The notes beneath the pieces are model-generated. The model did no database searches and was not told the DNA's origin. It saw only the letters and a program-made list of their open reading frames with translations. From a virus (lineage: Duplodnaviria > Heunggongvirae > Uroviricota > Caudoviricetes), in the IMG/VR virus record IMGVR_UViG_2706794690_000012: a stretch of DNA of 6,755 nt; one strand, 5' to 3'. Shown one piece after another: positions 1,710-6,755 of this stretch (within the stretch, counting starts at the first letter, position 1; the number at the start of each line of letters is the position of its first letter). Both the position numbers and the translations under genes were made by a program.

Positions 1710-2072
1710 GGGGCTGATTCTGGATTCGACGGGATTTGCGAAACCCAAGGTGCATGCCGAGGGGCGGTTGGCCTCGTAAAAAGCCGCAAAAAATAGTCGC
1801 AAACGACGAAAACTACGCTTTAGCAGCTTAATAACCTGCTTAGAGCCCTCTCTCCCTAGCCTCCGCTCTTAGGACGGGGATCAAGAGAGGTCAAACCCAA
1901 AAGAGATCGCGTGGAAGCCCTGCCTGGGGTTGAAGCGTTAAAACTTAATCAGGCTAGTTTGTTAGTGGCGTGTCCGTCCGCAGCTGGCAAGCGAATGTAA
2001 AGACTGACTAAGCATGTAGTACCGAGGATGTAGGAATTTCGGACGCGGGTTCAACTCCCGCCAGCTCCACCA
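1710..2072 (+). ncRNA. ssrA: tmRNA (SsrA, 10Sa RNA), complete 363-nt mature sequence ending in CCA
   Basis: Begins GGGGCTGATTCTGGATTCGACGGG (tRNA-like acceptor 5' half) and ends GGACGCGGGTTCAACTCCCGCCAGCTCCACCA (T-arm plus acceptor 3' half plus CCA). The internal tag frame is present. The sequence matches E. coli ssrA as I recall it. Confidence 0.95.
1799..1831 (+). other. tmRNA tag-peptide reading frame: GCA AAC GAC GAA AAC TAC GCT TTA GCA GCT TAA, encoding ANDENYALAA plus stop
   Basis: The exact canonical E. coli degradation tag codons, read directly inside ssrA. Confidence 0.9.
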
Positions 2073-2270: not shown

Positions 2271-2492
2271 TTACGTAACATCAAACGCTCTAATTGTTCC
2301 CAAATCCTCCAGACCACTCAGCTCCTCTTTCATTTCACGCTGACGGCGATAAATCTCATCGTTGCGATCGACCTGCGCCTGCACCATTGCTGCCGCCAGT
2401 TCTTCCAGTTCCGGCATCGACAGTTTCACCTGCTGATTATCGGCATCACCCCACGCCATATGCGTTTGTGCTGTGACAGATTTTGCCAGCAT
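2271..2492 (-). CDS. Hypothetical small protein (73 aa from the ATG; frame open upstream to 2525), predicted helical; possibly the C-terminal part of a frameshifted tail-fibre chaperone
   Basis: Codon usage is E. coli-like (ctg gaa gaa ctg gcg gca gca atg gtg cag...). It is the last ORF before the terminator in the tail-fibre operon. No clear RBS precedes the ATG at 2490-2492. It overlaps the preceding ORF in another frame. Confidence 0.4.
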   Translation of the reverse strand: MLAKSVTAQTHMAWGDADNQQVKLSMPELEELAAAMVQAQVDRNDEIYRRQREMKEELSGLEDLGTIRAFDVT

Positions 2493-2700
2493 GACTACCG
2501 GGGACAGGCGGCCCAGTGAGTCGGGCTATCTCACCCCATTTGCCACTTTGCAGTTCCTGCCAGATTCGCTGACCCGTCGGTGCGACATCATCAGCGGTGG
2601 CTGTGTAGGGGACTGCCTGGTCCCTGTCGTCAAAAAAAACGTCACAGTCTACTGCGCCACTTTCGGTATAACGGGGATTAATGATTTTTTTAATTTCCAC
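2446..2700 (-). CDS. Hypothetical protein (84 aa, GTG start) directly downstream of the Stf-like gene; possible N-terminal part of a tail-fibre assembly/chaperone protein
   Basis: An in-frame GTG at 2698-2700 is preceded by GAGGAA with a 6-nt spacer, directly after the Stf stop (TGA 2711-2713). The ORF-track ATG at 2758-2760 would overlap Stf by 50 nt. The product ends in a proline-rich stretch (LTGPPVPG) reminiscent of Tfa inter-domain linkers. Confidence 0.4.
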   Translation of the reverse strand: MEIKKIINPRYTESGAVDCDVFFDDRDQAVPYTATADDVAPTGQRIWQELQSGKWGEIARLTGPPVPGSHAGKICHSTNAYGVG

Positions 2701-2710
2701 GGTGCATTCC

Positions 2711-3979
2711 TCACGATGTGCGAATAAAAAGCCCGGGCATTGCGCCAGAGACATGAGCATCCGGCACCCCGGACAGGGCGCTATATGACCCCGGTAATGA
2801 ATGCTCTGAACATCCCGTAATGAAAAATTGTGGGGATGCTATATACGTTCCGGTGGGAGTACTGGGCACTGAAATCCCCACCGGTCCCAGTCGTGAGCCT
2901 CTGTATGACTGCCCCCTGACAAGTCTGATGACTTTATCACCGTCAGCTTCTCCCTGGTACGCAGCAATAATCAGCCCGCCAATGTCAGGGTCTCCCCATC
3001 TGTTGCAGACAGAGCTCGCCACGATTCTGTAAATAATATCTTCTGTGGTTATATTTATTTTCACCCAGCCAGTCAGTCTGGATATGGGCCAGTAGCAGTA
3101 GCGGGTGTGATAAATGGGGCCGTTAATGCCGTAAAAAGTAAGGGATTTGGCTCTGTACCTCGGTTCTGTTGTCTCAGGGCGTGCATCAGTCCACCGGATG
3201 CTGAGCACCCCTTCAAACCGTGTGTCGGGTATGATGATGTCGTAGGGGCCAGCAACGGAATATTCACCTGGCAGCGCATTCCTTACCCAGGCCAGGAAAT
3301 CACTCTTAGTGTCAAAACGGATAACATCTTCAGGCAGAAAAGCACACCCAAAGCCGAATGCGCCGGGTATCGCCAGACGGCCTTTTGTCCGGTCGTAAAT
3401 GTCGCTCTGTGCTTCCATCGTGGCCGCACTTTTCAGCCCCAGATTATCCCGGGACTTCTGTTGTGCCTTTTCGCCTGCTGCTGCGATTTCAGACAGATGG
3501 TTAGCCGTTTTCAGAGTGCCGGTCAGCGCAGCATCAATGTCATTTTTGGCCTGCTCTGCTGCGCGGGCATAACCTGCGGCTGCCGCCACATCCTGCGCCG
3601 TCTGCTGTGCGTTTCCGGCTGCGGCCCCGGCGCTCTGCTGCGCCTGCGCCACCATTTCCTCAAAGCGTTTGACGACATCCGGTTTCAGGTCGCCCTCATC
3701 AGGAGCAATCAGAAAGTCATTCAGCGTGCCGGGCTTTGAGTCGTCGTATACAGCAATGTCGCCAACACAGTACTCGTCGCGCCAGTCCCGTTTCAGATAC
3801 ACGCAATATTTTCCGACCTGTGCCTCAAACGAATATTCACCGTTATTTCCGGTCACTACATCAGCCCTGGTACGCATCACCACTTCTGAGGTGTTTACAC
3901 GGGATTTCAGAATAATCTGGCATCCGGACATGGGGATGCCTGCGCCATCAGTCAGCGCACCTGATATCACTACAGACAT
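2711..3979 (-). CDS. Side tail fibre protein, 422 aa, with a lambda Stf-like N-terminal domain, an Ala/Gln-rich shaft and an unrecognised C-terminal region
   Basis: The N-terminus MSVVISGALTDGAGIPMSGCQIILKSRVNTSEVV...VYDDSKPGTLNDFL parallels lambda Stf (MAVKISGVLKDGTGKPVQNCTIQLKARRNSTTVV...VYEDSQPGTLNDFL; recalled from memory). This is followed by an AAAGNAQQTAQDVAAAAGYARAAEQAK-type shaft. The last roughly 230 aa have no family I recognise. Confidence 0.85.
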   Translation of the reverse strand: MSVVISGALTDGAGIPMSGCQIILKSRVNTSEVVMRTRADVVTGNNGEYSFEAQVGKYCVYLKRDWRDEYCVGDIAVYDDSKPGTLNDFLIAPDEGDLKPDVVKRFEEMVAQAQQSAGAAAGNAQQTAQDVAAAAGYARAAEQAKNDIDAALTGTLKTANHLSEIAAAGEKAQQKSRDNLGLKSAATMEAQSDIYDRTKGRLAIPGAFGFGCAFLPEDVIRFDTKSDFLAWVRNALPGEYSVAGPYDIIIPDTRFEGVLSIRWTDARPETTEPRYRAKSLTFYGINGPIYHTRYCYWPISRLTGWVKINITTEDIIYRIVASSVCNRWGDPDIGGLIIAAYQGEADGDKVIRLVRGQSYRGSRLGPVGISVPSTPTGTYIASPQFFITGCSEHSLPGSYSALSGVPDAHVSGAMPGLFIRTS

Positions 3980-4002
3980 AGTTTTTCTCGCGATAAATTA
4001 AA

Positions 4003-4548
4003 TCAGGAAGAACCTTCCGGAGAGACGGACCATTCAATGGCGTTATATGAGGATTTATCAGTGATGGTGCTGAAATCCATCGCCTGCAGCGATTTCGCGT
4101 AAATACGGTACGCTTTCAGTTTTTCCCGGTCTTCGTCGCTGATTAGCCCCAGCAGCAGGTCTTCTTCCCATTCCCCTGTCCGGGCACTGACCTGAGCCAG
4201 AAGGGCATCACGCTCATCTTCCGCTTTGAGTCTGTAGTCAAAGACAAATTCATCATTGCGGTAAAACCAGTAACCCGGCGCGGTAATGCGGCGGTTGGCG
4301 GTAATATCAGGAACTTCAATAACACTGGCGTTACGGGGTTCAATGCCTGTCACATCCTTACCGACCCACACCACGCGCCCGTCTCCGGTGTAAACCATTT
4401 TTATGGTGTCACTGGCAAAGTTCTTCTGTTCTTCATACCAGTTTTTGCCGTCTTCCGAAAAAAGCCAGGTGACATCATACTGTTTTGTCAGCTGATATTA
4501 TTCCGCGGTTTTCGGATTACCTGCCGTAATATTTTTTAAATGCAACAT
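4003..4548 (-). pseudogene. Tail-fibre assembly protein (Mu U / TfaE-like) interrupted by an in-frame ochre stop at codon 17; the ORF track shows only the distal 131-aa part (4003..4398)
   Basis: The ATG at 4546-4548 sits 2 nt after the upstream tail-fibre stop (TAA 4551-4553). It reads MLHLKNITAGNPKTAE, then TAA at 4498-4500, then continues in the same frame YQLTKQYDVTWLFSEDGKNWYEEQKNF...ITANRR...IEWSVSPE. The N-terminal signature matches Mu U / TfaE-type proteins (MHLKNI.AGN.KT..QY.LTK...DGKNWYEE) as I recall them. Confidence 0.6.
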
Positions 4549-4550
4549 TG

Positions 4551-5603
4551 TTAAATACTCGCTACGTTATACCAGGTGCCATTAATCAGTTTTTGCAGCG
4601 GTCGGTAATACACGCCGTTGACGTTATCCGCTGAGTTACGGCCGGTATCCGATATCGATATCCCTGACAGCCCGTGTCCCGAAGGTGAGCGAAATGTCCA
4701 CGAAACGGTGTTACTGCCGGGGGGGTAATACATTTCATAACCATACCGCACATCCTGCACGCCACCATTTCGCTGCTGGTAACGGGCATCAAAGTTTCCG
4801 TAGTCTGACGGTGTTACCCGTCCTGTAACGTTTACAGCTTTATTACTCTGGATACTGCCACTCTGAAAACGCAACACATGCACGCTATTGGCATAAACAT
4901 CCAGCAGGCCATCACCATTCTGTTTGAATCCGGTGTCATTATCACCAAGAACAATTGAATTCCCCCCCAGGGCGTTCTGAACGCCGATACCCAGCGCACC
5001 ATTGACCTGCGAACCACCGCCAACAGACACTTTATGCGACATGGATATTTCACCCGTCCGCAGATTAATGGTGAACGGGCGCAGGGGACCAATATCGCCA
5101 TTTTCCCCCTGACCTTCACTGGTGGGAATAAGGTGCAGGCACTCTTCCGAACGACGAAAAATCAGGCCAAAAGCTTCGTTGAAAATCCTCAGCGCATTAA
5201 CACCACGGATTTTCAGCTCTCCGGTCATGGTGTCGCCATCACGCTGAACGGCATTTTTTGCCTTATCCACCGTGGGTTTTAATCCGAGGTTTTCAACAGC
5301 CTCATCCCTGTCTTCCACATCCGAAAGGTTATTTTTTATCAGCAATGCCTCTTCGTTAATTGCACCGCCCACCAGCAATAATATAGCCTTATATAGCTGG
5401 TCGTGTTCTTCTTTATTCAGTTCTATCCCGGCCTTCTCAATGACACCACAGATTTCCTCCTGAATGGCATTCCACATGGCACTGTTCAGCCAGGTAGCAA
5501 GACGTCCTGTGCGAAGATTTCCGTCAGTAAATCCGTTCTTACCCGGACCAAACTTATCTTTTACCGCAGTCAGCGTATCAATCCTGTGCATCTTCATCCT
5601 CAT
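4551..5603 (-). CDS. Tail fibre protein (Mu S-like), 350 aa
   Basis: The N-terminal motif FTDGNLRTGRLATWLNSAMWNAIQEEICGVIEKAGIELN resembles the conserved N-terminal region of Mu S-type tail fibres. The C-terminal part is Gly/Asn/Ser-rich. It is followed 2 nt later by the Tfa start. Possible starts at 5603, 5597 or 5591 all overlap the upstream gene. Confidence 0.8.
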   Translation of the reverse strand: MRMKMHRIDTLTAVKDKFGPGKNGFTDGNLRTGRLATWLNSAMWNAIQEEICGVIEKAGIELNKEEHDQLYKAILLLVGGAINEEALLIKNNLSDVEDRDEAVENLGLKPTVDKAKNAVQRDGDTMTGELKIRGVNALRIFNEAFGLIFRRSEECLHLIPTSEGQGENGDIGPLRPFTINLRTGEISMSHKVSVGGGSQVNGALGIGVQNALGGNSIVLGDNDTGFKQNGDGLLDVYANSVHVLRFQSGSIQSNKAVNVTGRVTPSDYGNFDARYQQRNGGVQDVRYGYEMYYPPGSNTVSWTFRSPSGHGLSGISISDTGRNSADNVNGVYYRPLQKLINGTWYNVASI

Positions 5604-6168
5604 CTGGATAGGAAAATAAAACGACGGTGTGTGACGGACATAATTTATTAATCACGCACTCCGCAACCGTATCCCCCCACGTCCGGATCGGTGTGTTGCA
5701 GGCGTCCGTGCATGTCTGCCACTGAGCACCGGCATCCATCGGCAACGTCACACGCCAGAAATAACGCCAGCGATCTCCCCATTCCGGATCGGGGCTTGCA
5801 TCCAAGTGCTGGAACTGTTCGATCGTTACGCCGGTATATCCCAGCGCCTCAAGCTGATCCAGGAAGAACTGCTCATTTATGCCACCAGCCACATTGGCTT
5901 TTGCTTCAAGACGTTGCTGACGCTGGCGTAATGTCTGGGTTCCGACAGGGGAACAGGAATCAGGTAAACCATACAATTCTTCATAACGTTCAATCAGCTC
6001 TGTGGACTGACCGGGATCGATTTCAATCACCAGTTCATCAGCCCGCTGGTGAACACGCACAAGCGATGGTGCCAGACCGTCAAGTACACCGTCGGTATCT
6101 GACCATGCAGGCCCCGGCGGCATCAGTCCGTACAGCAGCTTTGTATAATCATCCTGTAACGAATCCAT
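5578..6168 (-). CDS. Phage tail protein, Mu gp48 / P2 gpI / YmfQ-like (DUF2313-type), 196 aa
   Basis: The N-terminus MDSLQDDYTKLLYGLMPPGPAWS and the C-terminal TWGDTVAECVINKLCPSHTVVLFSY follow the pattern of YmfQ/gp48-like tail proteins (from memory). It sits between the baseplate J-like and tail-fibre genes as in Mu and P2. Its ATG (6166-6168) overlaps the upstream stop in a TAATG arrangement. Confidence 0.75.
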   Translation of the reverse strand: MDSLQDDYTKLLYGLMPPGPAWSDTDGVLDGLAPSLVRVHQRADELVIEIDPGQSTELIERYEELYGLPDSCSPVGTQTLRQRQQRLEAKANVAGGINEQFFLDQLEALGYTGVTIEQFQHLDASPDPEWGDRWRYFWRVTLPMDAGAQWQTCTDACNTPIRTWGDTVAECVINKLCPSHTVVLFSYPDEDEDAQD

Positions 6169-6566
6169 TATTTACTCCTTGCCGGGTCATAAGCCTGCCA
6201 GGTGATCTCGCCGAGCACCGGAAGCTCGGTCTCCCCCAGGTCAATATCCGATGAAGGGACGATTAACCGGTGGGCCACTTCACCAGCAGACAAACTGATG
6301 GCCTCACTGATTCTGGACAGATACATACGCCCCTCTGGCACACCATCCCGTAACATCAGTGCATTCAGCTCTGCTTTTATTGCAGTCCTGATCTGCGGTG
6401 TGTCTTTCGATAATGCAATCGTCATCGGGATGACTTTTTCTGTGGCACCGAATACATACAATCCGCTTCCGGCAACAGGTGCCAGAGGAAGGATGTGGTC
6501 CCTGACTGCGTTAATCACGCTTTCATCCGGGGCCGGGCGTTCCGGATCGTTTGTCGCCACCATCAC
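6168..6566 (-). CDS. Baseplate J-like protein (Mu gp47 / P2 gpJ family), C-terminal portion; the frame stays open upstream to an in-frame TAA at 6681-6683 and again from there to the window edge
   Basis: The ORF-track product MVATNDPERPAPDESVINAVRDHILPLAPVAGSGLYVFGATEKVIPMTIAL... has the layout of baseplate J C-terminal halves. The in-frame upstream translation VGSITGGADPDYVIWAKEVQGINRAWTFRHWKGTGTVGV also looks coding. The gene is therefore probably truncated or disrupted rather than a true 132-aa protein. Confidence 0.6.
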   Translation of the reverse strand: MMVATNDPERPAPDESVINAVRDHILPLAPVAGSGLYVFGATEKVIPMTIALSKDTPQIRTAIKAELNALMLRDGVPEGRMYLSRISEAISLSAGEVAHRLIVPSSDIDLGETELPVLGEITWQAYDPARSK

Positions 6567-6755
6567 GCCAACCGTTCCAGTGCCTTTCCAGTGTCTGAAA
6601 GTCCATGCACGGTTAATACCCTGAACTTCTTTCGCCCAGATAACATAATCAGGGTCTGCGCCCCCGGTGATGCTGCCAACTTACTGATTTAGTGTATGAT
6701 GGTGTTTTTGAGGTGCTCCAGTGGCTTCTGTTTCTATCAGCTGTCCCTCCTGTTC

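Follow-up and report, generated by a model that had tools for sequence, protein, structure and literature searches.

A fixed premature ochre codon in a Mu U-like tail-fibre assembly gene of a cryptic prophage remnant beside ssrA in Shigella sonnei-type genomes

The stretch of DNA analysed here, referred to as the window, is 6,755 nucleotides long and carries a prophage remnant that abuts the ssrA gene. Its features, from left to right, are the following.

1013-1495: smpB, from the open reading frame (ORF) list.
1710-2072, plus strand: ssrA (tmRNA), located with ARAGORN; the chromosomal attachment region that the remnant abuts.
2271-2760, minus strand: DUF4376 gene (ORF list and Pfam), split into ORFs of 104 and 73 aa.
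2711-3979, minus strand: second fibre gene, lambda Stf-type, 422 aa, with a phage_tail_N N-terminal domain (PF08400, 212.6 bits).
4003-4548, minus strand: tfa, a Mu U-like tail-fibre assembly chaperone gene read here as a pseudogene; 181 codons plus stop, broken at codon 17.
4498-4500, minus strand: premature ochre codon TAA at codon 17, ancestrally CAA (Gln), as judged from DNA alignment, conservation of Gln-17 and 17 of 17 assemblies.
4546-4548, minus strand: ancestral tfa ATG, with a weak SD sequence and a junction that is the same in intact homologues.
4551-5603, minus strand: tail-fibre gene, 350 aa from the first ATG, stop codon TAA at 4553-4551, with a weak gp37_trimer Pfam match.
5578-6168, minus strand: Mu gp48-like baseplate/tail-fibre-adaptor gene, 196 aa (PF10076, 89.6 bits).
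6168-6665, minus strand: C-terminal fragment of a baseplate J/gp47 gene; the alignment to the intact 360-aa gene of locus L001 ends at 6665.
6666-6755, plus strand: left end of IS1 (GGTGATGCTGCCAACTTACTGAT...), cut off by the window boundary; 99-100% identical to annotated IS1 transposase elements on more than 5000 plasmids.

Both fibre genes are still open reading frames. A protein identical to the 422-aa Stf-type product occurs in 723 blocks of the collection, including complete genomes in which smpB is adjacent. An exact look-up of the 350-aa product of the first fibre gene gave no match because public gene callers start four codons later; the public calls (L012, L015 and others) are of 346 aa, which by calculation corresponds to a start at 5591. 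Within this gene, at window positions 4823-4858, 34 nt stand in place of about 202 nt in E. coli FDAARGOS_944, leaving the window gene 56 codons shorter and still in frame (346 versus 402 aa). This shortening of the fibre shaft is either a mosaic replacement or a deletion.

On the minus strand the fibre stop codon (TAA, 4553-4551) is followed by a CA spacer and then by the tfa ATG (4548-4546). Only 2 nt therefore separate the two genes, and the preceding bases are AGTATT. The coding strand of tfa begins ATG TTG CAT TTA AAA AAT ATT ACG GCA GGT AAT CCG AAA ACC GCG GAA TAA TAT CAG CTG, such that codons 1-16 specify MLHLKNITAGNPKTAE and the in-frame TAA at 4500-4498 is codon 17, in the context TAA-T and outside any homopolymer run. 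Beyond it the frame is open for 164 codons, up to the TGA at 4005-4003, and this part of the ORF is free of other disabling mutations. The earliest ATG, GTG or TTG after the stop is the ATG at 4398-4396, which opens a 131-aa ORF (4003-4398). Reading of the minus strand bears out all the coordinates given in an earlier note on this DNA, those of the fibre stop, the start codon, the ochre codon and the downstream ATG, as well as its count of 164 downstream codons.

With Gln restored at codon 17, the 181-aa Tfa protein scored 87.7 bits with the Pfam family Caudo_TAP (PF02413; threshold 22.1) over residues 40-178. It also matched Mu U (PDB 5YVQ_B) with an E-value of 8e-39, query residues 1-158 aligning with residues 1-164 of the chain, and is 50% identical to Mu U'. 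Of 173 phage-collection records that match, 133 align over at least 80% of the Tfa query, and the homologues from Mu, D108, SfMu, P1, P7 and P2 are each aligned from query residue 1. The assignment of the gene as Mu U-like made in the earlier note is upheld by the Caudo_TAP score and by the match to 5YVQ from the first residue.

Tfa resembles Mu U (TfaMu, 5YVQ), the U and U' proteins of P1 and P7, P2 G and lambda Tfa in being homologous from residue 1. The proteins are also alike in size (181 aa here, 175 aa in the 5YVQ_B chain), and, as in the Mu U relatives, the gene lies immediately 3' of a fibre gene with the stop and start codons nearly overlapping. A summary of the TfaMu structure in PMC9608196 describes an N-terminal β-sandwich domain with helices that binds the fibre and C-terminal helices that trimerize. 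Structure prediction suggests that Tfa would share this Mu U-type plan of an N-terminal β-rich domain followed by C-terminal helices. In the AlphaFold2 model of an intact orthologue, residues 1-58 contain three strands and two helices, and long helices occupy the chain from residue 105 on, although pLDDT is below 50 over most of residues 1-46 and the model gives only a weak indication of secondary structure there. Unlike Mu U, the copy in the window has a stop at codon 17. A further difference from Mu is that tfa lies outside any invertible G/C segment and is followed on the same strand by the lambda Stf-type second fibre gene and the DUF4376 gene. Because both fibre/chaperone pairs are on the same strand, an invertible segment of the Gin/Cin kind was rejected.

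The ancestral state of codon 17 is seen in close relatives of the window. The closest complete E. coli genome match is FDAARGOS_944 (locus L001), with 99.3% DNA identity, in which the tail fibre assembly protein is annotated intact at 181 aa (WP_000902847.1) and is 98% identical to Tfa. VL46 (L002) likewise has an intact annotated 181-aa protein, 95% identical. Over a 191-nt alignment at the start of tfa, the sole difference from FDAARGOS_944 is the first base of codon 17 (TAA versus CAA); VL46 also has CAA, in flanking DNA that is identical or nearly so. The lesion is thus a single C>T transition on the coding strand, or G>A at plus-strand base 4500. Mu U reads NPKTKEQYQLTK at the equivalent site, with its Gln aligned to codon 17. 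A database-wide protein search found 799 Tfa homologues at E ≤ 1e-10. Among the best 120 cluster representatives of these, 108 are exactly 181 aa long, and all 108 have Gln-17. Conservation extends across the N-terminal region, with 29 invariant columns in residues 1-50 of a 30-sequence alignment. The sense codon that the earlier note gave for homologues, probably CAA (Gln), is the one present in FDAARGOS_944 and VL46, and Mu U and the 108 representatives have Gln at this position. Its view of the ATG at 4546-4548 as the original start is likewise borne out, the fibre-tfa junction being identical in intact homologues.

The same module is found in a complete phage genome. PP818812 shares the gene order of the remnant, with J, gp48-like gene, fibre gene, intact 181-aa Tfa, second fibre gene, small hypothetical gene and integrase, and it has the same 2-nt spacing between fibre stop and Tfa start. 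The record (PP818812.1, L031, 'Actinobacillus phage vB_Apl-pPE4', host Actinobacillus pleuropneumoniae) encodes a Tfa protein 86.7% identical to that of the window within the same two-fibre module. Its Actinobacillus host label is odd, given the closeness of the phage to E. coli and Shigella prophages.

The 546-nt tfa allele bearing TAA was identical at 546 of 546 positions in all 17 independent assemblies examined, which comprise 8 Logan run assemblies (ERR runs) and 9 NCBI complete genomes from different projects. Sampling was by exact-sequence look-up of the residual ORF of 131 aa and of the 422-aa Stf-type protein encoded beside it, which gave the 8 Logan assemblies and 8 of the NCBI genomes; one further complete genome and a second locus of a sampled genome agree. 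Two of the 17, CP060117 (UKMCC1015) and CP022457 (2015C-3566), are S. sonnei according to the literature, and we extend that label to the remaining assemblies and to the window on the basis of near-identity. A 71-nt probe spanning the TAA matched none of 5426 complete E. coli genomes perfectly; its closest match (98.6%) had one mismatch. The exact 162-aa product that public annotation derives from this allele occurs in 2404 blocks of the collection, and TAA was present wherever a place with exactly this 162-aa sequence was sampled. An annotation of 162 aa is by itself no proof of the stop, since contigs with an intact ORF can also be called at this length (discussed below). A test for an occurrence beyond chance is unsuited to a lesion of a single base, for which reality and fixation are what count. 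The tfa TAA is a fixed allele of the Shigella sonnei-type lineage.

The remnant carries other lesions. The baseplate J gene, uninterrupted in FDAARGOS_944, is broken by IS1 at 6666; the IS1-split J gene is also present in S. sonnei-type complete genomes, where it gives Baseplate_J_C Pfam calls. The DUF4376 gene has lost 134 bp flanked by two imperfect direct repeats, CAGTGAGTCGGGGC and CAGTGAATGGGGC, with the junction at about 2514-2525. Elsewhere this gene is intact and encodes 207 aa (L001, L011, L015 and others), and none of the 16 S. sonnei-type comparators that cover the region shares the deletion, which is either peculiar to this strain or an artefact of assembly. Within 4.5 kb the remnant thus has a premature stop codon, an inserted IS1 and a short deletion. 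The element has the marks of a cryptic prophage: its J gene is cut by IS1, it abuts ssrA, and the same set-up recurs in multiple complete S. sonnei-type genomes. The earlier note had raised the concern that loss of the chaperone might leave the upstream fibre non-functional; the point is moot because the prophage is already defective through the IS1 insertion in the J gene.

The chromosomal surroundings of the remnant vary. In the complete genomes L012 and L016 an incomplete ssrA 3' end and another integrase-bearing prophage come after it, in place of intact ssrA-smpB, and other genomes differ in gene order beyond an IS4-family transposase gene (raiA-pheL-pheA versus bamE-recN).

FDAARGOS_944 and a set of S. 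boydii-labelled copies provide the closest comparison outside the S. sonnei-type lineage. Their Tfa is 98% identical to that of the window and their neighbouring genes are alike (gp48-like, fibre, Stf-N-type fibre and DUF4376), but they have CAA at codon 17 where the window has TAA, and their islands adjoin an ipaH effector gene (NEL domain), whereas the window island adjoins ssrA and has no ipaH. In five S. boydii-labelled loci (L026-L030) the fibre gene is split into 217 and 206 aa, the Stf-type gene is cut to 234 aa and the island is IS-flanked, while tfa is intact. Another S. boydii-labelled locus (L025, GCA_902503745.1) has an independent TTA>TAA change at tfa codon 4, and its gene is called at 175 aa from an ATT. 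Different lesions in the same element across lineages are a signature of neutral decay. On four S. boydii-labelled draft contigs (L021-L024), annotation starts tfa (2019-2507) at CTG codon 20 and gives it 162 aa, despite an intact ATG and CAA. The CTG start on these intact genes appears to be an annotation artefact propagated from the abundant truncated S. sonnei-type protein.

The tfa gene of the window has a match to the family HMM, full-length homology that includes the N-terminal domain, and a position directly downstream of a fibre gene. What it lacks is the uninterrupted frame of a functional Caudo_TAP member, owing to the TAA at codon 17, and we therefore classify it, on sequence grounds, as a pseudogene descended from the Mu U / P2 G / lambda Tfa chaperone family rather than as a functional member. 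Observation establishes the stop at codon 17, the sense codon from which it arose, its fixation in independent assemblies and the further damage to the element. Very probably, then, tfa became a pseudogene through a CAA>TAA change (Gln-17 to ochre) that is now fixed in the S. sonnei-type lineage, within a cryptic, defective prophage next to ssrA. Inactivation of the chaperone gene was one of two outcomes put forward in the earlier note, and the TAA at codon 17, set against CAA in intact relatives, favours it.

The events at the locus may be pictured as follows. The remnant comprises a Mu-type baseplate module and then two fibre/chaperone pairs, beside ssrA. Ribosomes coupled from the fibre gene would start at the ATG at 4548 and terminate after 16 residues at TAA-T, and this early termination would leave no functional chaperone. 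The weak SD sequence at the native tfa ATG (an anti-SD duplex of -3.0 kcal/mol) is consistent with such translational coupling to the fibre gene. The remnant as a whole is decaying through unrelated lesions, namely IS1 in the J gene and, in the window, the 134-bp deletion in DUF4376. The 164 codons downstream of the stop are still open because the mutation is recent and the lineage highly clonal. From these data we infer that functional Tfa is absent and that its loss was neutral.

The alternative that fares best is that an N-terminally truncated Tfa is made and keeps chaperone or some other activity. Three starts downstream of the ochre codon come into question.

4003-4398, minus strand: residual 131-aa ORF from the ATG at codon 51; no SD sequence; gene callers report it only on 16 short Logan contigs.
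4372-4374, minus strand: GTG at codon 59, with GGAG and an 8-nt spacer, giving 123 aa; -6.6 kcal/mol; the caller start in L013, L014 and L016.
4489-4491, minus strand: CTG at codon 20, 6 nt past the stop, giving a 162-aa 'tail fiber assembly protein' in L011, L012, L015, L017 and L018.

For such a product speak the open frame of 164 codons, the Caudo_TAP match to residues 40-178, most of which would be kept, and the public gene calls of 162, 131 or 123 aa. The GTG at codon 59, whose GGAG lies 8 nt upstream, is the strongest internal start signal in tfa; the calculated anti-SD duplexes are -3.5 kcal/mol for CTG codon 20 and -0.2 kcal/mol for the ATG at 4398, and a low-level 123-aa fragment may be produced from the GTG. 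The open frame is, however, accounted for by the clonality and youth of the lineage, in which 17 of 17 copies are identical at 546 of 546 positions. CTG is a very poor initiator, which counts against the 162-aa product. Re-initiation at the ATG at 4396-4398, the other outcome envisaged in the earlier note, is not supported, this codon being devoid of an SD sequence and 99 nt downstream of the TAA. A scan of positions 3950-4750 for σ70-like promoters found none.

Comparison with homologues also argues against a truncated product. None of the best 120 of the 799 homologues starts at the equivalent of Met-51 or Val-59, so that naturally short homologues beginning at codon 51, which the earlier note had named as evidence that would overturn its reading, did not turn up in that set; the Mu, D108, SfMu, P1, P7 and P2 proteins align from residue 1. 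Residues 1-50 are strongly conserved and, going by the summary in PMC9608196, form part of the fibre-binding N-terminal domain of TfaMu. The AlphaFold2 model, of low confidence in this region, places the three strands and two helices of the N-terminal domain in residues 1-58, and a fragment of 123 to 131 aa would miss about half of that fibre-binding domain. The host element is in any case defective. We consider an active truncated Tfa, whether of 131, 123 or 162 aa, to be improbable.

A more specific proposal is that the residual ORF, started from GTG codon 59, the CTG or the ATG, represents a free-standing C-terminal trimerization module retained in S. sonnei. If this were true, the C-terminal Tfa module might assist neighbouring fibres or be co-opted by the host. 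We regard it as highly improbable.

Less probable again, and hardly to be expected, is read-through of the ochre codon, by a suppressor tRNA or as a programmed event, yielding a useful level of full-length Tfa. An intact start, coupling and downstream frame are compatible with it, but nothing points to it specifically. No context is known to terminate more efficiently in E. coli than UAA followed by U, which is that of the tfa stop; ssrA is the one tRNA-like gene of the window; and the Gln at codon 17 of homologues indicates a recent loss rather than a conserved recoding site. Finally, a sequencing or assembly error in an intact tfa, which the earlier note had allowed for at 4498-4500 and for which a difference of just one base from the closest E. 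coli homologue might speak, is excluded for practical purposes because the same TAA allele, identical at 546 of 546 positions and outside any homopolymer run, is present in 17 independent assemblies of different projects.

The reading of tfa as a pseudogene in a cryptic prophage fits what is seen in these bacteria generally. Shigella genomes are characterized by the formation of pseudogenes and by prophages eroded through IS elements, and the window remnant is a typical instance that differs in no respect from this pattern. It is a case of ordinary gene decay with nothing mechanistically new, and the truncated product is already in public annotation as a 'tail fiber assembly protein'. The locus should instead be flagged as a pseudogene, and not as a protein of 162, 131 or 123 aa under that name. 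The CAA>TAA change might also be used as a simple marker of the lineage. The importance of the finding is limited, in that it touches no open biological question, and it stands as a further example of prophage and gene decay in clonal S. sonnei.
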